Source of the DNA: a virus
Lineage: Duplodnaviria > Heunggongvirae > Uroviricota > Caudoviricetes
Direction: 5' to 3' (one strand)
DNA: 23,366 nt
Virus record (IMG/VR): IMGVR_UViG_3300037400_001691
Span: 64,001 to 87,366 of that record
Every line of letters starts with the position of its first letter. Position 1 is the first letter of the stretch. Of the stretch, positions 1-13,575 are shown one piece after another. The position numbers were made by a program, and so were the translations under genes. The notes under the pieces are model-generated. The model saw nothing but the letters and a program-made list of their open reading frames with translations. It had not been told where the DNA came from and ran no database searches.

Positions 1-846
1 AAATGTACACTTTATGAAATTCCTTGTATGTTTGCAATTCCCGAAGTCAATAATGAGGATAAGGAAATTAACTGGGAACTTACAATGAGTAAGTTGGAAG
101 AGAAAGTTAAATTAGCAAATGAAAATGGAATATTGTTCTCTGAATTTGGAACAAGACGTCGTTTTAATTATGCTGTACAAGATAAAGTATGTGCATATCT
201 TAAGGAAAATGCAAAGACTTGTGTAGGTACATCAAATGTACACTTTGCAATGAAATATGATATGAAGCCAATTGGTACACACCCACATGAGTGGTTTATG
301 TTCCATGGTGCTCAATATGGTTATAAGGCTGCAAACTATGTTGCATTGGAGAATTGGGTAGATATTTATGATGGTGATCTTGGTATTGCACTTTCAGATA
401 CATACACAACAGATGCATTTTTCCGCAGTTTCTCACTAAAGCTTGCAAAGTTATTTGATGGAGTTCGCCAGGATTCTGGAGATGAATATGAATTTACTGA
501 TAAAACAATCAATTTCTATAAATCAAAGGGAATAGATTATCATAGTAAGACAATTGTATTCTCAAATGCTCTTGATTTTTCAAAAGCTCTTAAGATTTTG
601 ATGTATTGTAAGGAAAAAGGAATTAAATGTTCATTTGGTATTGGAACAAATCTTACTTGTGATGTATATGCACCAGATTGTACAAAATATGACGCAGAAA
701 ATATTGTTATGAAGATGTCTCGTTGTCGTATGAACACTAATCAATTTTGGTATTTAACAATTAAGATTAGTGATGATCTTGGTAAGCATATGGGAAACGA
801 TATAGAATTTAAAATAGCTATTGAACAACTTAATTTGAATAAATAA
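1..846 (+). CDS. pncB: Nicotinate phosphoribosyltransferase, 5'-truncated by the window edge
   Basis: Frame is open from base 1 (KCTLYEIPCM...). NAPRTase motifs: FSEFGTRRRF, GTSNV, PIGTHPHEW (phospho-His region), IALSDT, GVRQDSGD, IVFSNAL, SFGIGTNL, KISDD. Confidence 0.95.
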   Translation, partial: KCTLYEIPCMFAIPEVNNEDKEINWELTMSKLEEKVKLANENGILFSEFGTRRRFNYAVQDKVCAYLKENAKTCVGTSNVHFAMKYDMKPIGTHPHEWFMFHGAQYGYKAANYVALENWVDIYDGDLGIALSDTYTTDAFFRSFSLKLAKLFDGVRQDSGDEYEFTDKTINFYKSKGIDYHSKTIVFSNALDFSKALKILMYCKEKGIKCSFGIGTNLTCDVYAPDCTKYDAENIVMKMSRCRMNTNQFWYLTIKISDDLGKHMGNDIEFKIAIEQLNLNK

Positions 847-848
847 TT

Positions 849-1685
849 ATGGAAAAAGAATATAAATTTGATGTAGCAGAAGTTACTAATAATCTAGTCC
901 TTTGGATTAGAGAATGGTTTGAAAAGAACGGTAAAGGATGTAAAGCTGTACTTGGTATGTCTGGTGGTAAAGACAGTACCATTACAGCTGCGCTTCTTGC
1001 AAGAGCGTTGGGTTCAAATAACGTTGTTGGTGTAATGATGCCAGATCTTGGTCAAGGACTTAATGAAGCTGACGAAATTTGTAAATTTCTTGATATCAAT
1101 TGTATTTATGCTCCTATTGATAATATAACAGGAGCATTTTATGATTCAGATATTACAATAGACAATGGTATTTGGTCATTAAACAATTTCAGTAAACAAG
1201 CTGAACAAAATATTCCTCCTCGTGTTCGTATGACTATGCTTTATGTAATTAGTCAAACACTTAATGGTCGAGTAATCAATACTTGTAATCTTTCTGAAAA
1301 TATAATTGGTTATGAAACCATCTTTGGTGATGCTGCTGGAGATATGTCACCACTTGGAAATCTTACAGTAACTGAAATTCTTAAGATTGGTGATTATATT
1401 GGAATTCCTTATAAATGGGTACATAAAACTCCAGACGACGGACTTCCAAATAGTAAACCCGATGAAGAAAAGTTTGGATTTACTTATGCTGAATTAGATG
1501 ATTTTATTCGTACAGATAATCCTGAAACAGAAGATGGTCATTGGGCTAAAATTGAATCTATGATTTATGATTCAAAATTTAAACGTGAATCAATGGCAAC
1601 ATTTAAACCTTCAGACGAAGAACTTTATATTGATAATTTATGTTCAGAAAGTAATGAGTCTAAAAACGATTATGAAGTATTTTAA
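849..1685 (+). CDS. nadE: NH3-dependent NAD+ synthetase (278 aa, no glutaminase domain)
   Basis: LGMSGGKDS PP-loop, RVRMTMLY, NTCNLSE, GYETIFGDAAGDMSPLGNL, KTPDDGL, DEEKFGFTYAELD. Confidence 0.95.
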   Translation: MEKEYKFDVAEVTNNLVLWIREWFEKNGKGCKAVLGMSGGKDSTITAALLARALGSNNVVGVMMPDLGQGLNEADEICKFLDINCIYAPIDNITGAFYDSDITIDNGIWSLNNFSKQAEQNIPPRVRMTMLYVISQTLNGRVINTCNLSENIIGYETIFGDAAGDMSPLGNLTVTEILKIGDYIGIPYKWVHKTPDDGLPNSKPDEEKFGFTYAELDDFIRTDNPETEDGHWAKIESMIYDSKFKRESMATFKPSDEELYIDNLCSESNESKNDYEVF

Positions 1686-1695
1686 AATTTAATAA

Positions 1696-2244
1696 ATGAG
1701 AAATCAACCTTGTTATGATGAGAACGGGAAATTTATTGGATGGTTTTCCCGTTCTTGTGCAGTTACTAATATGGTAATTGCTCGTGATTATAAATTTAAT
1801 TTTTATATTCTTGCTTCAAAAAGAGGTAAAGGTACTCCAGACCCAGAATTTGTTGGATGCTGGTGTTTACCTTGTGGTTATCTTGATTTTGATGAAACTA
1901 TAGAACAAGCTGCAAGACGTGAAACATTTGAGGAAACAGGTGTAATTGTTCTTCCACGTAATATGACATTTAAAAGTTATATGGGAAATCCAAATAGTGA
2001 TAAAAGACAAAATGTTTCATTCCGATTTATTACTTTCTTAGATAGACCTATTTCTTCATATAAGCTTACATCTAAATATTCTGAAAAAGATGAAGTAGAT
2101 GATATAGCTTGGATTCCACTTAAAAAGATTGATAATTATAAGTGGGCATTTAATCATAAGGATTTAATCAAAATGTTTAATCTTAATAAATCAACTTTAT
2201 TCTTTAAATATTATTGGTTTCATATTAAAAAATTATTTAAATAA
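1696..2244 (+). CDS. Nudix hydrolase (ADP-ribose pyrophosphatase-like), 182 aa
   Basis: Nudix box GYLDFDETIEQAARRETFEETG preceded by WCLPC. Substrate is inferred only from gene context. Confidence 0.9.
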   Translation: MRNQPCYDENGKFIGWFSRSCAVTNMVIARDYKFNFYILASKRGKGTPDPEFVGCWCLPCGYLDFDETIEQAARRETFEETGVIVLPRNMTFKSYMGNPNSDKRQNVSFRFITFLDRPISSYKLTSKYSEKDEVDDIAWIPLKKIDNYKWAFNHKDLIKMFNLNKSTLFFKYYWFHIKKLFK

Positions 2245-2262
2245 AATATTTAATTGATAATT

Positions 2263-2826
2263 ATGAATAAAATTTTAATTATTGTTGATTTTCAAAAAGA
2301 TTTCTGTGAAAAGACAGGAAGTCTTTATGTTCCTGGTACTGAAATAGCTAAAAAGAACATTTTAAAGTATCTTGATACTGAAAAGCCAGATGCTGTGTGT
2401 TTTACTTTAGATTGGCATACACGTCATGATGAATCTTTTAAAAGAAATGGTGGTATATGGCCAGATCATTGTATTCAATATTCAGAAGGTGCTGCAATTG
2501 ATCAAGATATTATAAAAAAATGTATTGATAATAATATTCTTTATACTACATTCTTAAAAGGAGATGGGAAAGTAGAAGAATATGGTGCTTTTGGATATGA
2601 TGCAAGCAGTCCTCTCTTTAATCTTGATAATGATAATAAATTAACTTTTGAAAGTTATACAGGAAAAAGTTATTTTACATTTTGTAAAGATAATGAATAT
2701 ATTATTTGTGGTCTTGCTGGAGATTATTGTGTAAAATCTACATATGATAATCTTAAGAAATATGGAATTAACGTAACTCCTTTCTATGAAGGAATTGCAT
2801 TTATTGGTGAACCTTTTAAATATTAA
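2263..2826 (+). CDS. pncA: Nicotinamidase/pyrazinamidase (isochorismatase-like cysteine hydrolase), 187 aa
   Basis: IVDFQKDF, GSLYVPG, LDWH, WPDHC, GLAGDYCV (catalytic Cys). ATG at 2263 preferred over the TTG at 2254. Confidence 0.92.
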   Translation: MNKILIIVDFQKDFCEKTGSLYVPGTEIAKKNILKYLDTEKPDAVCFTLDWHTRHDESFKRNGGIWPDHCIQYSEGAAIDQDIIKKCIDNNILYTTFLKGDGKVEEYGAFGYDASSPLFNLDNDNKLTFESYTGKSYFTFCKDNEYIICGLAGDYCVKSTYDNLKKYGINVTPFYEGIAFIGEPFKY

Positions 2827-2831
2827 ATTAT

Positions 2832-3089
2832 ATGAATCTTTATTTGTTAATTTGTTTTATTGTAATTGCTCTATTGCTTGTAGAAACATACAATAGAATT
2901 GGTAAGTTAAATTCTAAAATTAAGGATTTAGAGAATAAAACCAACAATGCATTTTATCAGAAGTCTCGTGAAGTACAAGATTTAGCTTCTGATTTCTATA
3001 CTTTAAGACGTGCTTATGAAAATCATAAGCATAGGTATGAATACGAAGGTGATACTTTGTATATTAAAGAACCTATTGAGCAAGAATAA
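2832..3089 (+). CDS. Hypothetical protein with N-terminal hydrophobic anchor and coiled-coil-like segment, 85 aa
   Basis: MNLYLLICFIVIALLLV is hydrophobic. The ORF packs tightly between its neighbours. Confidence 0.75.
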   Translation: MNLYLLICFIVIALLLVETYNRIGKLNSKIKDLENKTNNAFYQKSREVQDLASDFYTLRRAYENHKHRYEYEGDTLYIKEPIEQE

Positions 3090-3091
3090 TT

Positions 3092-3370
3092 ATGAATACA
3101 CTTGATAAAATAAAGTGGATTTCACGACATCAAGAAATTAATCCACGATTATCCGAAATACATGAGTTTACTACTATACCATCTGATCTTTGGTATGATA
3201 TTTTTTGCGTTAAACAAAATGAACTATGTTTATATCCATATCTTGCATATCATGCTTTATGTTATTTAGAAGAAATAGAATCTGAAGAAGTGAAGAATAA
3301 AATATATGAATTGTTCGATAAAATTTATTTAGATGTTTGTAACGGATATTGGGGATTCTTTTATAATTAA
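3092..3370 (+). CDS. Hypothetical protein, 92 aa
   Basis: ORF fills the operon gap, with an aataattATG start context. Confidence 0.7.
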   Translation: MNTLDKIKWISRHQEINPRLSEIHEFTTIPSDLWYDIFCVKQNELCLYPYLAYHALCYLEEIESEEVKNKIYELFDKIYLDVCNGYWGFFYN

Positions 3371-4008: not shown

Positions 4009-4157
4009 TGATATATAGACGTTATCAATATTGGGGTCCAGGTGCTAAAATCGTTTGGACTTCTTGGTTTAAATATGATACTAAGAAATCTTTAGATGAT
4101 TTAAAGAAACAAAAACCTATATTTAAAAATCTTTTAGAAGAATATAAAGAAGTATGA
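4008..4157 (+). CDS. Small hypothetical protein, 49 aa (MIYRRYQYWG...EEYKEV)
   Basis: Not in the ORF track. TAATG overlap with the upstream stop and ATGA overlap with the downstream start; fills the gap exactly. Confidence 0.7.
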   Translation: MIYRRYQYWGPGAKIVWTSWFKYDTKKSLDDLKKQKPIFKNLLEEYKEV

Positions 4158-5021: not shown

Positions 5022-5288
5022 ATGGAATTAACAGGAGAAATTTTACAAAGAAATGGATTTAGTTGTAATCATCCAGAAAGAGTTTTAAAGACTTATTATT
5101 ACGATAAGGTATTCGGTTATGGAATTACAGCACAGCAAATGTTTGATCCTTTAACTAACAGTACATTCTGGTATGTTGTAGCACAAAATGGACCGAATAA
5201 TAGTGCAAGTGTTACGGGAATTAAAACATTAGAAGATTTTCAATCTGTAATCAATCTTGCTAAAATTGATCTTTTAATATATAACTAA
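5022..5288 (+). CDS. Hypothetical protein, 88 aa
   Basis: Operon packing, ttaattATG start context. Confidence 0.7.
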   Translation: MELTGEILQRNGFSCNHPERVLKTYYYDKVFGYGITAQQMFDPLTNSTFWYVVAQNGPNNSASVTGIKTLEDFQSVINLAKIDLLIYN

Positions 5289-5452
5289 TGAATAATTCAC
5301 TCAAAAATTATTTAGAATGGAGATTTAGGCATAATAACATTCCAAAGTATCACAGATATTGTGATACTTGGATTGAAAATATTCCTAAATCTCAATTGTG
5401 GTATTATGAGATTGAAATGTCTCATTTAATAAATAATGGAATTTATGGATAA
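5288..5452 (+). CDS. Small hypothetical protein, 54 aa (MNNSLKNYLEWRF...GIYG)
   Basis: Not in the ORF track. TAATG overlap with the upstream stop; fills the gap before the YqeY gene. Confidence 0.7.
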   Translation: MNNSLKNYLEWRFRHNNIPKYHRYCDTWIENIPKSQLWYYEIEMSHLINNGIYG

Positions 5453-5469
5453 TTTAATATTTAAAAATT

Positions 5470-5910
5470 ATGATAAACATCAATGAACTTATAAAAGACG
5501 CACTGAAAAGTAAAGAGGCTGATAAGCTTAAGGCTTACAGAAATTTAAAAGCTAAGATTATGGAGTATAAGACAGCTAAAAATGCTAAACCTTATGATAA
5601 TCAAGCTGAAATTCAAATCATCAAAAAGATGTGTGATTCTCTTAAAGAGTCCGAAAATAACTACAAAAAAGCCAATAGACAGGATTTATTTGACGAGTGT
5701 ATAGTTGAAAGGAGAATACTAGAACAGTTCCTCCCAGTGGCTGCTACACCTCAAGAAATCGAATTAGCAGTCAAAGAGTCAGAATATTTTGTCGATGGAA
5801 AAATTGACAAGAAATCTATGGGATTAGTAATAAAAGAGGTAAAATCAAAATTTGATTTTGTAGATGGAAAACTCGTATCAGAAATCGTAAAATCTTTTAT
5901 TAATGGATAA
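5470..5910 (+). CDS. GatB/YqeY domain protein, 146 aa
   Basis: Pattern LIKDALKSKE...RNLKAKI...Y..ANRQDL...E..ILEQFLP...KKSMGLVIKEVK...DGKLVSEIVK is typical of YqeY. Confidence 0.85.
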   Translation: MININELIKDALKSKEADKLKAYRNLKAKIMEYKTAKNAKPYDNQAEIQIIKKMCDSLKESENNYKKANRQDLFDECIVERRILEQFLPVAATPQEIELAVKESEYFVDGKIDKKSMGLVIKEVKSKFDFVDGKLVSEIVKSFING

Positions 5911-6934
5911 TATCGTTGAGAAAGCGAAGCAAGTATTAACAGAAATGTTTGTTGATGATAATTTAGCTACATACGATGGAACTATTTGGGAAGTTTGTGT
6001 ATTTGGGAAAATATACGGAACTTTTTCCAGATATTTCCACTATGGAGCAACACCAGAAACACAATGGGATGATTATCATTTTCCTCATAAAGAAGTATAT
6101 GGTTCAAATGATTCGTATAATGCCTTCTTAAAAGAGTTTAAAGAAGATGGATTTCATTGGTGTGGATATATTTTTACAGAATATGGAATTATAACGCATA
6201 CAGAAATAATGTTAAATTGTGATGAACTTCCCGAAAGAATTAAAAAGACATTAGTTTTAAAGGAAAATCAATCACATTATTCTGTTGCTAAATTTCATGG
6301 TGGAGGTATATATGTTAAACCTTCTAAAGTAAAAGTAGTTGGTGAAGAAGTAAAAGATAATTATAATGATGATTTACCATATGATAGTTATTTCAAATTT
6401 ATTGAATCTGATGATTCTGGAATAGCTATGTTACATGGACTTCCTGGAACAGGTAAATCTTACTTCTTGAGATATTTAATAAATAAATATTCAAATACAA
6501 AGTTTATTAAGATTGATAAAGAAGTATTTGATAATGTTGATTCCGAAACATTTTCTGAATTTTTAGATAGATTTGATAAAGCAGTTTATATCATTGAAGA
6601 TTCAGAAACAATAATTCGTTCAAGAGAAAACGGAATAAATGATTATATGCCTACGATTCTTAATCTTACAGATGGATTAGAATCAGACGAAAAAACTGTT
6701 AAATTTATATTTACTTATAACACAAGTGATGTAAATGTTGACGAAGCATTAAAGCGTAAAGGAAGAACTAAGATAACATATGAATTTAAGGAATTAGAAT
6801 TAGACAAAGTTGCTAACTTGTTTAAGAAGTTTGGAATAACTGATAAACCTAATAAGAAAATGCGCCTTTGTGATATTTATCATTATAAAGATGCAAATGG
6901 TAATGAAAAGAAATATACTAAAATAGGATTTTAA
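5903..6934 (+). CDS. AAA+ ATPase with uncharacterised N-terminal region, 343 aa
   Basis: Walker A GLPGTGKS, Walker B-like YIIEDSE, ILNLTDGL, sensor FTYN, arginine finger DEALKRKGR. Confidence 0.9.
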   Translation: MDNIVEKAKQVLTEMFVDDNLATYDGTIWEVCVFGKIYGTFSRYFHYGATPETQWDDYHFPHKEVYGSNDSYNAFLKEFKEDGFHWCGYIFTEYGIITHTEIMLNCDELPERIKKTLVLKENQSHYSVAKFHGGGIYVKPSKVKVVGEEVKDNYNDDLPYDSYFKFIESDDSGIAMLHGLPGTGKSYFLRYLINKYSNTKFIKIDKEVFDNVDSETFSEFLDRFDKAVYIIEDSETIIRSRENGINDYMPTILNLTDGLESDEKTVKFIFTYNTSDVNVDEALKRKGRTKITYEFKELELDKVANLFKKFGITDKPNKKMRLCDIYHYKDANGNEKKYTKIGF

Positions 6935-6936
6935 TT

Positions 6937-7125
6937 ATGACAACATCTTTAGTAATTTTATTCTTTATAGCATTACTTGCAATTCTATTTCCGTGTTTTA
7001 TATTAGATTGTATATTAGAAATTATAATATTAATTTTTATAACTCCAGTTATAATTTACAATCTTATTTTTTCTACAGGAGAACGAATTTATGATAAGAT
7101 TTTCAAAAACAAACGAAATAAGTGA
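6937..7125 (+). CDS. Small membrane protein, 62 aa
   Basis: About 45 mostly hydrophobic residues followed by a basic tail (KIFKNKRNK). Confidence 0.65.
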   Translation: MTTSLVILFFIALLAILFPCFILDCILEIIILIFITPVIIYNLIFSTGERIYDKIFKNKRNK

Positions 7126-7670: not shown

Positions 7671-7719
7671 AAGGGCGACTTGATTGGATAAACTCCAGTC
7701 AGGTCGCCCTTATTTTTTT
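7671..7719 (+). terminator. Intrinsic terminator at the convergent junction
   Basis: 18-bp stem AAGGGCGACTTGATTGGA (7671-7688) / TCCAGTCAGGTCGCCCTT (7694-7711) with two G.U pairs and a 5-nt loop, followed by ATTTTTTT. Confidence 0.9.
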
Positions 7720-10700
7720 ACTCTTGTGAATTAACTTTAAGTGTATGGAAAACAGGTTTAAATTGAGTAAATAAAGCATTACTTCTACCTATTCCTGTCC
7801 AAATATTTTGATCTCCAAATACTGTATCCCAAACATTGGTTGCTTGATTACCGAAATATTCAAAAGCAAATGGTGTCCAATTTATAGCAGGATCTCCAAT
7901 TGAATTAATAAAGTTAAAGTCTAAGATTGAGTTTCTAACTGATTTTATAGCAATATTCATTGCAGATAATTTCAGTGCATCACCCATATCTGTTTCACTT
8001 GAATTTTTCTTTTCATCATCATAAGCACTTCCAAGAATCATTGCTAATATATTACCAACAATTAAGAACATTATTAAATCATATCCTAATTGTGTCATAT
8101 TAGAACGATAAGCATTTCGTAAGTTAGCATCTTCATTATACCATAATTCTTGCCAAGCGTTATTCCAACCATTATAATATATATTACTAGCGAAAGTATT
8201 CATTGTTGAAACAATTCCTTCTTTCCAATTTCCTTCCCAACGAACTACTTTTTCTACAGAAGCGTTTTCATCACCTTCTTTCACAGGAGGTTCATTAAAT
8301 AATATATTTCCATCCTTATCTTTTTGATAATAGTATTGAATTGTGTTTCCATTTTCATCTTTTTCAGTATATGGAACCCAACGTCCTTCAAGTTTTACAC
8401 TACCATGAGCAAGATATTGATTCTTTTTACCAGACCAGAATGTCTTAAACTGCATGAATAATGAACCCCAAAGTGTAGATTGAATCATAGATTTCTTTTC
8501 ATGTGAATAGTAACCATAAATTGTATCACTAAGTGATTTCATTGATTCTGCTTCTAAGTTAGTATAAGCACGTGGAAGTTTAGTTTTCTTTGATAAATCA
8601 AGTTTAAACTTAGTTCCATCTGGATTCATAGCATTTTCTTTTTCAAATTGTCTTGCATTAGCAATATAAACCATTTTAGCTTTTTCATATTCTTGAGGAT
8701 TAGATCTATCATCATCAAAAAATGCTTTGTATCTCTTATCTTTTGCACAGTCATATTCAATTGTTCCATCTGATTTAATTGTGTGAGCTTCATAAGCACC
8801 TTCATTAATCATTTTAGCAACGAATATTGTCATTCTATTATAATAGTCTGGACGTGAGGCAAATTTAAATAAGAAATTATTGAAATTAAATATTCCATTT
8901 TGGTCAGTCTTTATTTTATCAATATATGTATTCATATCCATATCATTGATACCATAAAGTCTGTTAAATTGCTCAATTAAAGTTGGCTTATCAGTATAAG
9001 CTTGTGGATTACATAGTTCTTTGTAAACTATTTTTGCAGCTGATAACATATTATTTAATGTAAATGCGTCAGTTCCATCTGGTTTACGAATAATTAAAGA
9101 AATGTCATTCCAAATACCTTGTATACTCTGATAGAAGAATTGAACAGGAGAGAAACCAAGAGCAAGTTTAGAAGCTGCTGCTTTAAGTTTATTTGCTATT
9201 TCATTAGCAGCTCTATATTGTTCTGGAATAATTGATTCATTTTTAATTTTACTCTTAATATATTTTTCAAGATAATCAATATCATTTTTAAATCCACCTT
9301 CAACATTTTGATTAAAACCTTGAACAGTAAGATTTATCATAGAAGCCTTAATCATTGGGAATACTTCATCAATTCTTTGTTTCATTTGATAAGCAAAAGT
9401 ATGCTTTAAGAAAAGTGTTTCCAAATTAAGTTCATAACGACCTCTTGCTAATATTTTTTCTCTTGAAATTCCTTCTCCATAATCAAATCCATTTACCATT
9501 GTAAATAGATTTTCTACATTCTTTTTAGATTCATTATATGTTCTTTGAACTTCATCACTAAATACACCTTCTAATTTAGCTTTAGCTCTTTCATAAGCTA
9601 CTTTAGGAATCCATCCTTTCATTTTATCTTTAAAAGCAGCAAGTAATCCGTCTTTAGCAGCAATTACAGATGTATCTCCCTCACAAAGTGGTATTCTAAA
9701 GTATTTATCTGGATCTCTATCAGGATCGTATCCACGATTTCCATTAATAATAGGAAGTACATACTTTAAAAATTCTCTTTCAGCATCATTTAATAAAGCA
9801 TTTGAATCATATGGATTTTTAAAATATACATCGTTATTTTTAAATTCATACATATTTTTGTATAAAGATGCTTGATTTCCTACTGTATTTTCTTGTAACC
9901 ATCCGAAATTCTTAGATTTCTTTAACTTTTCAGTTAATTCGCGCATTTTAGCAGCGGGTTCTTGTATATCAGCACGTACGTTTTGGTAAGCCTCTGTTAC
10001 AAGTTTAGTAGATAAGTTAAGAGTATCAGATTTTAAGTTACCAGGGTTATCAAGCATATTACCACTAAGTCCAAATTTGTGAACCATTAAAGTTTCACAC
10101 CATGCAGCATGGTCATGTAATTGTTGTCTAAAGTTTATACCTTTAAGTTCAGCTAAAGCAAGTGAACACATATTATATAATGCTATATGATCTCTTGCTA
10201 ATTGGTCTTGGTTTACAGTATAGTTCTTTAATGCTCCTTCTTTATCAGTAGTTTCAAGTTGTTTCATAAGCTTTTGAATAGCATCTATTTTATCATCAAT
10301 AGAAGTATCACTTTCAACTGCTGTATCAAGCATATTTTTACAAGTCTTAAAGTCTCTATATTTTGGATATGGATCTTCTTCATCCTTTGTCATAATATCA
10401 GAAAGTTTAGTTCTTGCAAGTTGAACTTTAGCACCCATTTTAATTTTACCATTTCTAAAGTTATTTCCAACTTTAATTTTAACATTACTTACTTGTTCAA
10501 TTTCATTAAATGTATCAAGTAATTCTTTATTAGATGCTGCTTGAATACCTTCACCTAGCATAGGGTCTGCTACTAATATTTCTCCAATATAAGCTTGATC
10601 TCTTTGAATAAGAGTATCAAGTTGATTAATTGCAAGCATAGTTTCCATTAACTCAATGTTACCATAAGTTGCTTGCATCATCATAGAGTCTGGGTTAGAT

Positions 10701-12520
10701 TGGAAATATAAGTCAGATTTAAAAGCTCCTCCTAATGTAGTGTGTTTATCACTACCAAAATTATATTGTCTTTTTAAATTTTGAGAAGAAATTTTAATAA
10801 AATTATATTGTCTATTCTTTGCATTGAATAGTGTAACAATACCAAGTGCTTCTAAAGGTTTAAATTGTTCTCCTGTACAAACTTCCCAGTTTTTATTACA
10901 ATAAGGAGCAACCATTCTTGCAAACCATGCTTGTCCACCTTTATCAGCAAATTCAACTCCTTCTGGAGATCCGTGTGCAATAGCAGTTTTAATACGTTCT
11001 TTAATTGTAGCTGTAAATCTTTCACGGAATTTAGGTCTATCTTGTAACCATTTAAGAACTTTTTTAACAAGTTCATCTTCTGCATTTGGTTCAGAAGCAT
11101 CAACAGTTATTGGTTTACTTGTAGAACCTTTTGGTTTAAATACGAGTTTACCTGTTTCATCAGGTTCAAAAGCATTATTATCTTCACAGATTTTCTTAGC
11201 ATCCTCATATTCATATGTTTTATATTGTGCATATCCAGGAAACCATGTACCAATAGTATCTTGAATATTACTTAAAAAGTCTTCTGTTGATAAATTAAGT
11301 TGATATTGATAATCAACAATTTGTGCAAGTTTTTCTTGTGTATTTTGATTGTTTACTTCAACACTTATATCTTTAATTATTCCAGATGGACTAACTTGGA
11401 ATCCTGTATAAGTATATTTATCATCAAAATATTGAAAGTCAGCAATTTGAATTGGAATAATATTAAATGATGTATCAGTAATTCTTAATCCAGCTTTAGC
11501 TAATAAGTTACCATAAGTACCAATTTGGTATCTATATGCTAATTTTTTAGAGTCGTTAAATTCTTCATATGGATGAACAGATGTTTTATAATCGACAATG
11601 TGTGGAAATCCTTCTCCATCAATAACAAGTAAGTCAATAATACCCATTAAAGTATCAATTCCTTTTTCATTAGGATTTACAACTTTACCTGTTATTTTAA
11701 ATTCTGGAAAAAATATAGGAGTACCTTTACTACCAAATTTATCCATAACAGATTGTTCAATTTTAGTACATTGTTGAAGAGCTTGTGTCAATTGAGAGTC
11801 ATCCATTAAATCTGTAAATTTAACAGTATCTCCTTTTTTATTTTTATATGTAAGTTTAGATAATTCAGATTTCATTACATCTAAAAATGAAGGATCTGTT
11901 TTTAATATATCCTTATAATAAATGTAGTTTCCATCTGCATCTAATTTATCAGTACCTCCTTCTTGAACTCTTGTAAAATATAATTCAAGTACAGAGTGCA
12001 TAGCATCACCAAATAATGCTTGATGATCCCATTTTGTTTTTATAGTATCTTTTAAAAATTCTTGTTGTGCTAAAGTATAACATTTAGGCATATTATTTAC
12101 ATCCCAGCCTAAAACTTCTGAAAATACTTTCTTTTCATCGTCAGTATAATTTCCTTCAGCCCAATCACCGAAACGACCTTTCCAATAGTTATCTTCTCTA
12201 AATTCTGGGAATAGAAGTCTTCCATCTAATTCAAATCCAGATAAGAAACTATTTACACCTTGATATGGTGCTCTAAATTCATAAGAATCTCGTTCATCAG
12301 AAAGTATTCTATGATTTCGAGCATAATCATATTCAGCTTCTAATCTTGTAGCTTCGTCTGTTACCTTTTTTAAAGTATCTAAAGCTACTGCTTGATGAGT
12401 TGATATTTGGAATACAATATCACCCAGTTCTTTTCTTAAATAATTTTTTGCTAATAAAAAATCATCTAATTCAATTTCAGAATTAAATTGATGTCCGTCT
12501 AATAAATATACACAACTCAT
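7718..12520 (-). CDS. Large (1600 aa) putative virion-cargo protein with N-terminal PD-(D/E)xK (RecB-like) nuclease domain and a C-terminal hydrophobic helix
   Basis: Motifs FGDAMH, FPEFKI, GIIDLLVID, IVDYKTS, YQIGTY. Hydrophobic LIMFLIVGNILAMILGSA near the C-terminus. ATG at 12520 overlaps the upstream TGA (ATGA), so it is preferred over the TTG at 12526. Virion localisation is inferred from crAss-like gene context. Confidence 0.8.
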   Translation of the reverse strand: MSCVYLLDGHQFNSEIELDDFLLAKNYLRKELGDIVFQISTHQAVALDTLKKVTDEATRLEAEYDYARNHRILSDERDSYEFRAPYQGVNSFLSGFELDGRLLFPEFREDNYWKGRFGDWAEGNYTDDEKKVFSEVLGWDVNNMPKCYTLAQQEFLKDTIKTKWDHQALFGDAMHSVLELYFTRVQEGGTDKLDADGNYIYYKDILKTDPSFLDVMKSELSKLTYKNKKGDTVKFTDLMDDSQLTQALQQCTKIEQSVMDKFGSKGTPIFFPEFKITGKVVNPNEKGIDTLMGIIDLLVIDGEGFPHIVDYKTSVHPYEEFNDSKKLAYRYQIGTYGNLLAKAGLRITDTSFNIIPIQIADFQYFDDKYTYTGFQVSPSGIIKDISVEVNNQNTQEKLAQIVDYQYQLNLSTEDFLSNIQDTIGTWFPGYAQYKTYEYEDAKKICEDNNAFEPDETGKLVFKPKGSTSKPITVDASEPNAEDELVKKVLKWLQDRPKFRERFTATIKERIKTAIAHGSPEGVEFADKGGQAWFARMVAPYCNKNWEVCTGEQFKPLEALGIVTLFNAKNRQYNFIKISSQNLKRQYNFGSDKHTTLGGAFKSDLYFQSNPDSMMMQATYGNIELMETMLAINQLDTLIQRDQAYIGEILVADPMLGEGIQAASNKELLDTFNEIEQVSNVKIKVGNNFRNGKIKMGAKVQLARTKLSDIMTKDEEDPYPKYRDFKTCKNMLDTAVESDTSIDDKIDAIQKLMKQLETTDKEGALKNYTVNQDQLARDHIALYNMCSLALAELKGINFRQQLHDHAAWCETLMVHKFGLSGNMLDNPGNLKSDTLNLSTKLVTEAYQNVRADIQEPAAKMRELTEKLKKSKNFGWLQENTVGNQASLYKNMYEFKNNDVYFKNPYDSNALLNDAEREFLKYVLPIINGNRGYDPDRDPDKYFRIPLCEGDTSVIAAKDGLLAAFKDKMKGWIPKVAYERAKAKLEGVFSDEVQRTYNESKKNVENLFTMVNGFDYGEGISREKILARGRYELNLETLFLKHTFAYQMKQRIDEVFPMIKASMINLTVQGFNQNVEGGFKNDIDYLEKYIKSKIKNESIIPEQYRAANEIANKLKAAASKLALGFSPVQFFYQSIQGIWNDISLIIRKPDGTDAFTLNNMLSAAKIVYKELCNPQAYTDKPTLIEQFNRLYGINDMDMNTYIDKIKTDQNGIFNFNNFLFKFASRPDYYNRMTIFVAKMINEGAYEAHTIKSDGTIEYDCAKDKRYKAFFDDDRSNPQEYEKAKMVYIANARQFEKENAMNPDGTKFKLDLSKKTKLPRAYTNLEAESMKSLSDTIYGYYSHEKKSMIQSTLWGSLFMQFKTFWSGKKNQYLAHGSVKLEGRWVPYTEKDENGNTIQYYYQKDKDGNILFNEPPVKEGDENASVEKVVRWEGNWKEGIVSTMNTFASNIYYNGWNNAWQELWYNEDANLRNAYRSNMTQLGYDLIMFLIVGNILAMILGSAYDDEKKNSSETDMGDALKLSAMNIAIKSVRNSILDFNFINSIGDPAINWTPFAFEYFGNQATNVWDTVFGDQNIWTGIGRSNALFTQFKPVFHTLKVNSQE

Positions 12521-13575
12521 GAGCAAAATTCTTCTAGTCTATGTTCTCTCATTAATGCTGCTTTAGTATTCATTTCAATACGATGTAAAGTATTATCATC
12601 AAGAGAACCTTTAAAATTATTAGTAAGTATTGAAGATTTAACTTTTTTAGCTAGATCTCTAAGTGTCATATTTCCTAATTCTGTTTTATTAACATTATTA
12701 ACACTAAATTGTCCCATAAGAACAGAATCAAAAACACGAGTTAAATCATAAAATAAATTATATTTTGTAGATTCATCTAAATCATCAAATTTAGAAGGAA
12801 ATCCGGTTAAATATTTAGAAAATTCTTCAACTAATATCTCTTCATTAATATCGTTTCTTGTTCTATCTGCAAACTACTTTATCATAAGTGGATAATCTTC
12901 AAAATTATTTACTTGTGATAATAAAGATTGATATAACTTTGGATTAGTAAATCTAATTGAACCAAGAAATAAATGCATCATTTCATGTAAAGGTGCATCT
13001 ATATCAGCAACCTCTGTATTGATATAAATATTACCATTATATACAAATGCAGATGTATGTTTTGCGTCTGGTACTTTATCTTTCCATTCTTCAGACATAA
13101 GTTCAGATGTACTAATTGGAATTATTCCAACCCCGTATAATCTTGCTAATTTATTAATAGTTTGATTTAATAAAACTGTACTATTTACATTTTTATCAAA
13201 TTCTACTATGTCTTTATACTCATTATAAAATCTAGAAGGTCTATGTTCTATTTCAACATGAGCTGTTGTTTTTAAAGGAATAAGAGTCACTTCTAAATCT
13301 CTATAATCGTTGTTAAGTACAACATTCGCCTCTTCTATAGATTTTGTTCCTGTAGCTCTTAAAATTTGATCGATATTTGCAGAAGTATCAGTCATTTCAA
13401 GAGATTCTTTAAGGTCTGGTTCTGAATTACTTTCGGCTAATTCATCAACATAAGGAAATCTATCATATTTATCTAAGAAAGGTCTACATTGTGCTAATAA
13501 TTCAAAATCAGAGAGTCCAGACTTCTTTTTCAAAGTCTGGTACTCTACTGAATTAATATTTATACATGATGCCAT
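12517..13575 (-). CDS. Zincin-like metalloprotease domain protein, 352 aa if the in-frame TAG (12874-12876) is read through
   Basis: GNIYIN...APLHEMMH (HExxH, residues 197-201). After the TAG the same frame stays open for 118 codons (FADRTRNDINEEILVEEF...EEFCS) and ends in a TGA overlapping the next ATG. This joins track ORFs 12874..13575 and 12517..12717. Confidence 0.8.

Follow-up and report, generated by a model that had tools for sequence, protein, structure and literature searches.

The stretch of phage DNA analysed here (23,366 nucleotides; the window) comprises bases 64001-87366 of the 87,366-bp linear IMG/VR virus record IMGVR_UViG_3300037400_001691, for which CheckV gives a completeness of 48%, and it opens with a block of genes of nicotinamide adenine dinucleotide (NAD+) metabolism. 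This block is best read as a phage-borne deamidating NAD+ salvage module that likely keeps NAD+ available in the infected cell; the purpose is one that we infer, and the reading as a whole is given a probability of about 0.6. The module can be placed within a conserved set in large gut phages whose nicotinate phosphoribosyltransferase (PncB) is closest to that of Bacteroides/Phocaeicola. The identities of the genes, their catalytic residues, their conservation and the lesions in this copy are observed directly. An earlier reading of the window from its letters alone (the original prediction) recognised the enzymes correctly; the pathway is more complete than that reading saw and is partly broken in this copy, and a phage Preiss-Handler route had already been published.

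Gene content and enzyme identities

The original prediction described four adjacent, co-oriented NAD genes with gaps of 2-18 nt in a phage context, and the positions of the open reading frames (ORFs) and the family scores bear this out. Four adjoining ORFs lie on the plus strand (1-846, 849-1685, 1696-2244 and 2254-2826), separated by 2, 10 and 9 nt, the last gap widening to 18 nt if the nicotinamidase (PncA) starts at the ATG at 2263 (Table 1). The window edge cuts pncB, whose remaining part sits directly upstream of it together with a NADAR gene and nadD. The genes pncB, nadD and nadE all fall inside 3.1 kb (genome 62642-65685), with nadD broken in this record and intact in two relatives, L083 and L084. 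The phage context is confirmed by the virus record itself and by the presence of the same genes in 174-188 kb viral genomes rated 96-100% complete (CheckV). The proposed pathway logic, in which nicotinamide is converted through nicotinate, nicotinate mononucleotide (NaMN) and nicotinate adenine dinucleotide (NaAD) to NAD+ while ADP-ribose (ADPR) is cleaved, agrees with the family scores, catalytic residues and fold match. The NaMN-to-NaAD step, for which no gene had been placed, is encoded directly upstream by nadD, which is intact in relatives but broken here.

The window fragment of PncB scores 298 bits against TIGR01514 (cut-off 269.55) and 6.9e-57 against Pfam NAPRTase, and the 395-aa PncB of a relative reaches 370.9 bits, spanning model positions 2-395 of 399. 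IGTHPHEW, at residues 187-194 of the 377-aa PncB ORF, fits the PncB motif rule (GT-x-x-HEW, with the phospho-histidine). NadE is a one-domain protein of 278 aa that carries the SGGKDS PP-loop at residues 38-43 and has no glutaminase domain; it scores 148.9 bits against TIGR00552 (cut-off 63.65), 8.7e-46 against Pfam NAD_synthase and 1.5e-46 against phrog_11189 (‘NAD synthetase’). The nadD frame (NaMN adenylyltransferase, TIGR00482) retains the motifs GSFDPPHIGH (HxGH) and ISSTEIR (ISSTxxR) and matches Pfam PF01467 with 54.9 bits. For the NadD of relative P0010, the best matches are nadD models at 88-91 bits, under the equivalog cut-offs.

The PncA-like protein can be classed as a divergent member of the nicotinamidases. 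It narrowly passes Pfam Isochorismatase (27.7 against a cut-off of 27) and its best NCBIfam match is nicotinamidase/pyrazinamidase, but it fails the curated equivalog PRK11609 (NCBIfam; 56 bits against a cut-off of 174). By phmmer it matches solved nicotinamidases, including that of P. horikoshii (1ilw) at 3e-14. Counted from the ATG at 2263, the triad D9, K99 and C156 and the metal ligands D50, H52 and H69 align to P. horikoshii PncA, and all six residues are invariant among 13 phage homologues. An AlphaFold model (predicted local distance difference test 83, predicted template modelling (TM) score 0.84) returned nicotinamidases at every one of ranks 1-14 among PDB fold matches, with TM values of 0.60-0.70.

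The Nudix protein (Pfam Nudix 1.6e-15) has an intact Nudix box (GX5EX7REUXEEXGU) from G61 to V83, in which G61, E67, R75, E76, E79, E80 and G82 do not vary among 10 phage homologues. Also invariant in these homologues are the motif WAFNH (WAFxH) and P99, which lies 16 residues past the box, the spacing at which a proline presumably marks ADPR specificity. The best PDB and NCBIfam matches, with which the WAFNH motif is shared, include NrtR (3gz5/3gz8), NadM-Nudix (2qjt) and NtrR, all under curated cut-offs. ADPR is therefore the likely substrate, given the conserved box, P99 and WAFNH and the NrtR/NadM-Nudix/NtrR matches, an assignment by family resemblance below those cut-offs. Because the catalytic box is intact and there is no DNA-binding domain, the protein is best classed as an enzyme and not as an NrtR-type regulator. 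The NADAR gene encodes a stand-alone domain protein set within the cassette. NADAR enzymes remove ADP-ribose from DNA bases (PMC11543638), and NADARs in T4-like phages neutralise DarTG1 (PMC11825919).

Table 1. Genes of the NAD+ cassette and neighbouring features (positions are those of the window unless marked as genome).
Feature	Position	Strand	Basis
nadD frame, interrupted	genome 62642-63187, upstream of window	+	GSFDPPHIGH, ISSTEIR motifs
NADAR-domain gene	genome 63171-63656, upstream of window	+	Pfam 1.2e-45, PDB 8bau 2.9e-28
pncB, nicotinate phosphoribosyltransferase, C-terminal 281 codons in window	1..846	+	TIGR01514, Pfam NAPRTase
nadE, single-domain NH3-type NAD+ synthetase, 278 aa	849..1685	+	TIGR00552, Pfam NAD_synthase, SGGKDS, phrog_11189
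Nudix hydrolase, 182 aa, probably ADP-ribose pyrophosphatase, NadM-Nudix/NrtR type	1696..2244	+	Pfam, Nudix box
PncA-type nicotinamidase, 187 aa from ATG 2263; in-frame TTG at 2254 too	2263..2826	+	Active-site residues, fold
Two small ORFs, 85 and 92 aa, without assigned function	2832..3370	+	Same place after pncA in L084 and L083
Metallophosphoesterase, 210 aa	3376..4008	+	Pfam Metallophos 2.7e-09, phrog_547 3.8e-50
YqeY-like protein, 146 aa	5470..5910	+	Pfam YqeY 2.3e-23

Conservation in related phages

The synteny check across phage genomes that the original prediction had called for shows an intact cassette in close relatives and the five enzymes together in most related viral loci. The closest intact order, nadD-(NADAR)-pncB-nadE-Nudix-(273-aa protein)-pncA, is found in L084 (17 kb, ENA) and L083 (67 kb, Logan). 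In both, pncA is followed by the same small ORFs, the metallophosphoesterase, a PNK-type 3'-phosphatase, YqeY and an AAA protein. NADAR is variable, being present in L084 and missing from L083. A gene of 262-273 aa lies between Nudix and pncA in these relatives (L084:8943-9764, L083:6870-7658) and is missing from this record; it gave no family match, only coiled-coil noise. Within this phage species, the protein clusters comprise 61 and 64 members, and their contigs are up to 183,745 and 185,785 bp long.

A distant IMG/VR group, with contigs of 95-190 kb and PncB about 50% identical, has the order pncA-pncB-nadE-(AAA)-nadD-Nudix-yqeY, and two of its contigs (174 and 188 kb) are rated 96-100% complete by CheckV. 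The grouping of the NAD genes is not due to chance, since pncA, pncB, nadE, nadD and Nudix occur jointly within 13 kb in 63 of the 80 related IMG/VR viral loci. Most related loci have a homologue of the metallophosphoesterase no more than 5 kb from pncA, and a YqeY gene directly follows Nudix in 47+10 (~57) of them.

The nearest cellular PncBs are those of Bacteroides/Phocaeicola, at 55-58% identity. In a maximum-likelihood tree, whose root is not established, 23 of the 24 phage PncBs group in a single clade (support 85/98) next to Bacteroidaceae PncB, and because this clade stands at only 55-58% identity to Bacteroidaceae PncB, long retention of PncB in phages is suggested. Beyond the species, the closest PncBs (75-86% identity) occur on IMG/VR contigs of 158-435 kb (L003-L007, positions ~5100-7125), where the adjoining pncA is only 36-42% identical and the remaining neighbourhood is unrelated. 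Since a similar PncB there adjoins a much more divergent pncA, the comparison suggests that pncB alone may have been exchanged between large-phage lineages. In the 60-kb IMG/VR contig L010, PncB is nested among Bacteroides PncBs with no other cassette genes nearby, and this copy probably stems from host DNA included in a ‘viral’ contig, or else was acquired separately.

Bacteroides/Phocaeicola as the nearest cellular source, together with the nesting in L010, might suggest that the block is a piece of host chromosome or a bacterial operon binned in error, but the chance of this is close to negligible. Around the block, which sits mid-record, are genes of phage type (an array of tRNAs, LAGLIDADG endonucleases, ThyX and giant ORFs). 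Its synteny extends to many viral contigs, complete ones included, and the PncB is only 55-58% identical to that of Bacteroides.

Lesions in nadD and pncB

The original prediction had named inactive enzymes as a finding that would speak against it, and damage of this type is present in part: the pncB start codon is lost and nadD contains two stop codons. The in-frame stops in nadD are a TGA at codon 38 (genome 62753-5) and a TAG at codon 47 (genome 62780-2), both inside the family match. Relatives that are 84-96% identical have tryptophan (Trp) at both positions (EVWFVP, QNPWKE) and NadD lengths of 180-183 aa. An identical broken NadD product of 122 aa occurs in the Logan assembly of another run, SRR12668996, and in sample ERR3515514 (L102:1-550) a different nadD Trp codon, that in DYW, is TGA, without the stops of this record. 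Together, the 122-aa remnant in SRR12668996 and the different Trp-to-TGA change in ERR3515514 indicate that loss of phage NadD within one phage species is real, independent and recurrent. An exact 30-mer of nadD matched no other IMG/VR contig.

In relatives, pncB starts at genome 63659, which is 342 nt upstream of the window, and that ATG is ACG here. The next pncB ATG in this record is at genome 63713 (codon 19), and the 18 codons ahead of Met19 encode SILDTDLYKFTTSYAY, a motif kept unchanged by all 16 of the other phage copies in the alignment, even at about 50% identity. A complete pncB ORF with the N-terminal LDTDxYK motif and a usable start is thus lacking in this record, as its first ATG lies downstream of SILDTDLYKFTTSYAY. 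PncB calls of 377 aa in other contigs were considered as further start-loss alleles and rejected, as they reflect gene-caller choice only; L103 retains the ATG.

The three changes are all single transitions, which would suit assembly or sequencing errors, or recoded read-through, in a cassette that is really intact. This explanation is improbable. The exact 122-aa broken product is found again in SRR12668996, another sample has a different Trp-to-TGA codon, and the TAG in nadD aligns with an invariant Trp and not with Gln. Genome-wide stop recoding as a rescue of nadD was likewise rejected: TGA serves as a stop in ATGA overlaps throughout the genome, and read-through would lengthen the ORFs by a few codons only. 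There is no suppressor among the 18 tRNAs of the record, and the large ORFs of the window contain no internal TGA or TAG.

It is a weightier possibility, though one well short of an even chance, that the cassette in this genome is a decaying remnant by which NAD+ is no longer rebuilt and in which at most single enzymes (NadE, Nudix, PncA, NADAR) act. Three inactivating-type point changes in two genes, the missing 273-aa gene and the recurrence of the same broken nadD fragment in SRR12668996 are in its favour, as are the substitution counts. Along the L084 branch, 15 non-synonymous and 52 synonymous changes are counted in the five NAD genes, a sign of purifying selection on them there. On the branch of this record the counts are 35 and 37, with the two stops counted (p = 0.0015 against L084), and for pncB alone they are 12:15 here and 1:18 on the L084 branch (p = 0.006); in the tree, the PncB branch of this record has about 13 times the length of the L084 branch. 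However, the adjoining control genes point in the same direction (15:22 for this record against 12:32 for L084), and compared with them the NAD genes show no specific relaxation (p = 0.54). Because the control genes trend alike, relaxation cannot be pinned on the NAD genes.

Other features of the sequence also argue against simple decay. The substitutions peculiar to this record in PncB, PncA and Nudix sit at variable columns, with all catalytic residues retained. The pncB codons before Met19 are still open and conserved and begin two bases after the NADAR stop, and coupled initiation of PncB at the ACG or at an ATT may be possible there. The missing step in NAD+ synthesis can come from host NadD.

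Proposed function of the cassette

Under the favoured reading of a deamidating salvage module, the substrates, the flux and any benefit against defence are predictions drawn from the gene set. PncA would convert nicotinamide to nicotinate, and PncB would combine nicotinate with phosphoribosyl pyrophosphate (PRPP) to give NaMN. NadD would then carry NaMN to NaAD, which NadE would amidate with ammonia to NAD+; the ammonia released by PncA could feed this amidation. In parallel, the Nudix enzyme would cleave ADPR to AMP and ribose-5-phosphate, which host Prs can return to PRPP. NAD+ might in this way be kept up also when host NADase defences release nicotinamide and ADPR. Since nadD has two premature stops in this record, the conversion of NaMN to NaAD would have to lean on host NadD, and because the pncB ATG is lost, PncB would be produced from weak non-AUG initiation or be lost.

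Support by analogy comes from the second of the named NAD+ reconstitution pathways (NARPs), whose salvage enzymes defeat Thoeris and DSR2 when expressed by phages (bioRxiv 10.1101/2024.02.11.579819). Several points weigh against the proposed module. Codons 38 and 47 of nadD in this record replace Trp kept in all the closest relatives, the pncB ATG is ACG, and NadD was independently lost in another sample. The Nudix substrate specificity depends on a family resemblance below curated cut-offs. Searches of this record and of three relatives gave neither a phage Prs nor an Adps; without a phage Prs, the link from ADPR to PRPP would need the host. With four steps and a cost of several ATP, the cassette route is longer than NARP1 and NARP2, which need two steps each. 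Nicotinamide inhibits sirtuin-type enzymes, so that its removal could even favour SIR2-type NADases. In a literature search, no published experiment on any phage PncA/PncB/NadE route was found.

The block could instead be a general auxiliary metabolic module that supplies NAD+ for phage replication irrespective of defences, without a specific counter-defence role, which is rather unlikely. Li et al. (2024; PMC11662467) see in such clusters a means of making NAD+ independently for the phage's own use, NARP2 raises NAD+ even where no defence system is present (bioRxiv 10.1101/2024.02.11.579819), and a host pncA-pncB1-nadE operon is upregulated in PA5oct infection (PMC7318152). The direct substrate of the cassette is, moreover, PRPP and not ADPR. 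On the other side, an obvious phage consumer of NAD+ is missing in the group, a NADAR gene of the anti-DarT type is inserted in the cassette, and PncA and the ADPR-type Nudix act on exactly the two NADase products. An NAD-dependent ligase was not found in this 87-kb record or in the 100%-complete 188-kb relative; among the relatives it scored above cut-off only in a 376-kb jumbo phage, with one weak sub-threshold match in another. Counter-defence against NADase systems and general NAD+ supply are not distinguished by these data, which lean slightly towards conflict because of the ligase result in this record and the 188-kb relative and because of the embedded NADAR.

A bolder proposal, to which we give somewhat less than an even chance, is that the intact five-enzyme set (PncA, PncB, NadD, NadE and an ADPR-cleaving Nudix, sometimes with NADAR) may form a fourth NAD+-reconstitution counter-defence route, specific to large Bacteroides-infecting gut phages, which would recycle both NADase products via nicotinate. 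Recurrent loss of NadD would then mean that the phage needs to supply only the steps that are limiting in the host. A major strategy of bacteria against phages is to deplete NAD+. Phages have three proven routes by which it is rebuilt, and the deamidating route would add a fourth. Among large phages of human-gut Bacteroides-type hosts, the deamidating set seems to be the usual form (63/80 related viral loci), and, if the proposal is true, it would bear on gut phage-host dynamics and on the engineering of phages that bypass NADase immunity. The natural allele series (intact, nadD-null, and nadD-null with loss of the pncB start) could show which steps the phage needs.

Other features of the window

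The YqeY and metallophosphoesterase genes keep their linkage with the NAD genes across two phage groups that differ in gene order. For the 85- and 92-aa ORFs between pncA and the metallophosphoesterase gene, no family matches above cut-off were found. A hairpin at 7671-7711, with an 18-bp stem, 9 G-C pairs and a T-run, lies where the plus-strand block meets giant ORFs on the minus strand, and it is likely a bidirectional terminator. In a hairpin scan only this element and one at 4033-4063 stand out, and a sigma-70 promoter scan of the window gave matches at chance level. A 1602-aa ORF on the minus strand (7718-12526) has a PD-(D/E)XK nuclease domain at residues 164-348, and the remaining giant ORFs, of 1059 and 1792 aa, gave no Pfam or PHROG match. 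The giant ORFs of the window show only distant similarity (25-28%) to those of the 174-188 kb phages.

Comparison with known systems

Phage NAD+ genes have been described in several settings. Iyer et al. (2022; PMC9503650) list only NadV, NadM and NadR. Some isolated phages, Atu_ph07 and Phosso among them, have an annotated PncB, and PHROGs includes a phage NAD synthetase family. Literature searches for ‘NARP4’, or for a nicotinamidase in connection with anti-phage NAD+ depletion, returned nothing relevant. Three reconstitution pathways carry names: NARP1 (Adps and Namat) and NARP2 (Nampt and Nmnat; bioRxiv 10.1101/2024.02.11.579819), and NARP3, a PnuC-like transporter with a NadR-like enzyme from phage Bas30, published in August 2026 (PMC13464706). 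The suggestion that the cassette is a novel, third pathway does not stand, given NARP3 and the phage Preiss-Handler clusters of Li et al. (Microbiome, 2024; PMC11662467).

Like NARP1, the cassette would rebuild NAD+ from NADase products and has an enzyme of the phosphoribosyltransferase fold at its centre. In NARP1, however, ADPR is pyrophosphorylated and coupled directly with nicotinamide, whereas the cassette probably cleaves it; this record and the three relatives gave no Prs- or Adps-like gene. With NARP2 (NadV and NatV in Vibrio phage KVP40) it shares the use of classical salvage enzymes and PRPP, by which nicotinamide is turned into NAD+; KVP40 NatV also has a Nudix domain. NARP2 is, however, an amidated two-step route via nicotinamide mononucleotide, whereas the cassette would follow a deamidated four-step route via nicotinate, NaMN and NaAD. 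NARP3 likewise restores NAD+ in phage from classical bacterial NAD genes; it differs in importing nicotinamide riboside, has no components in common with the cassette and already holds the name of third pathway.

Bacterial pncA-pncB-nadE operons (e.g., P. aeruginosa pncA-pncB1-nadE; PMC7318152) and the ADPR-linked NAD regulons of NrtR and NadM-Nudix (PMC2330246) cluster the same enzymes and tie a Nudix/ADPR module to NAD salvage. The cassette differs from them in being phage-carried and in having a Nudix protein with an intact catalytic box and no DNA-binding domain. Its NADAR resembles the orphan NADARs that T4-like phages direct against DarTG1 (PMC11825919) in being a stand-alone domain protein. 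Unlike those orphans, it is embedded in a NAD salvage cassette and variably present (in L084 but not in L083), and its activity is a prediction.

The closest published counterpart is the set of 174 gut ‘NAD-jumbo phages’ with complete salvage or Preiss-Handler pathways and Bacteroidota hosts, among them Kuafu_71 with pncB-nadD-nadE (Li et al., 2024; PMC11662467). That bioinformatic study mentions phage pncA in passing and does not mention Nudix or NADAR. The clusters share with the present one the phage-borne pncB, nadD and nadE and an occurrence in gut phages of Bacteroidota, and they were read there as a means of independent NAD+ synthesis, possibly for counter-defence. The closest complete relatives of this phage, at about 184-186 kb, fall below the 200-kb jumbo threshold, and this record is 87 kb at 48% completeness. 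In contrast to the clusters of Li et al., this record has nadD and the pncB start damaged, and the cassette adds PncA, an ADPR-type Nudix and NADAR.

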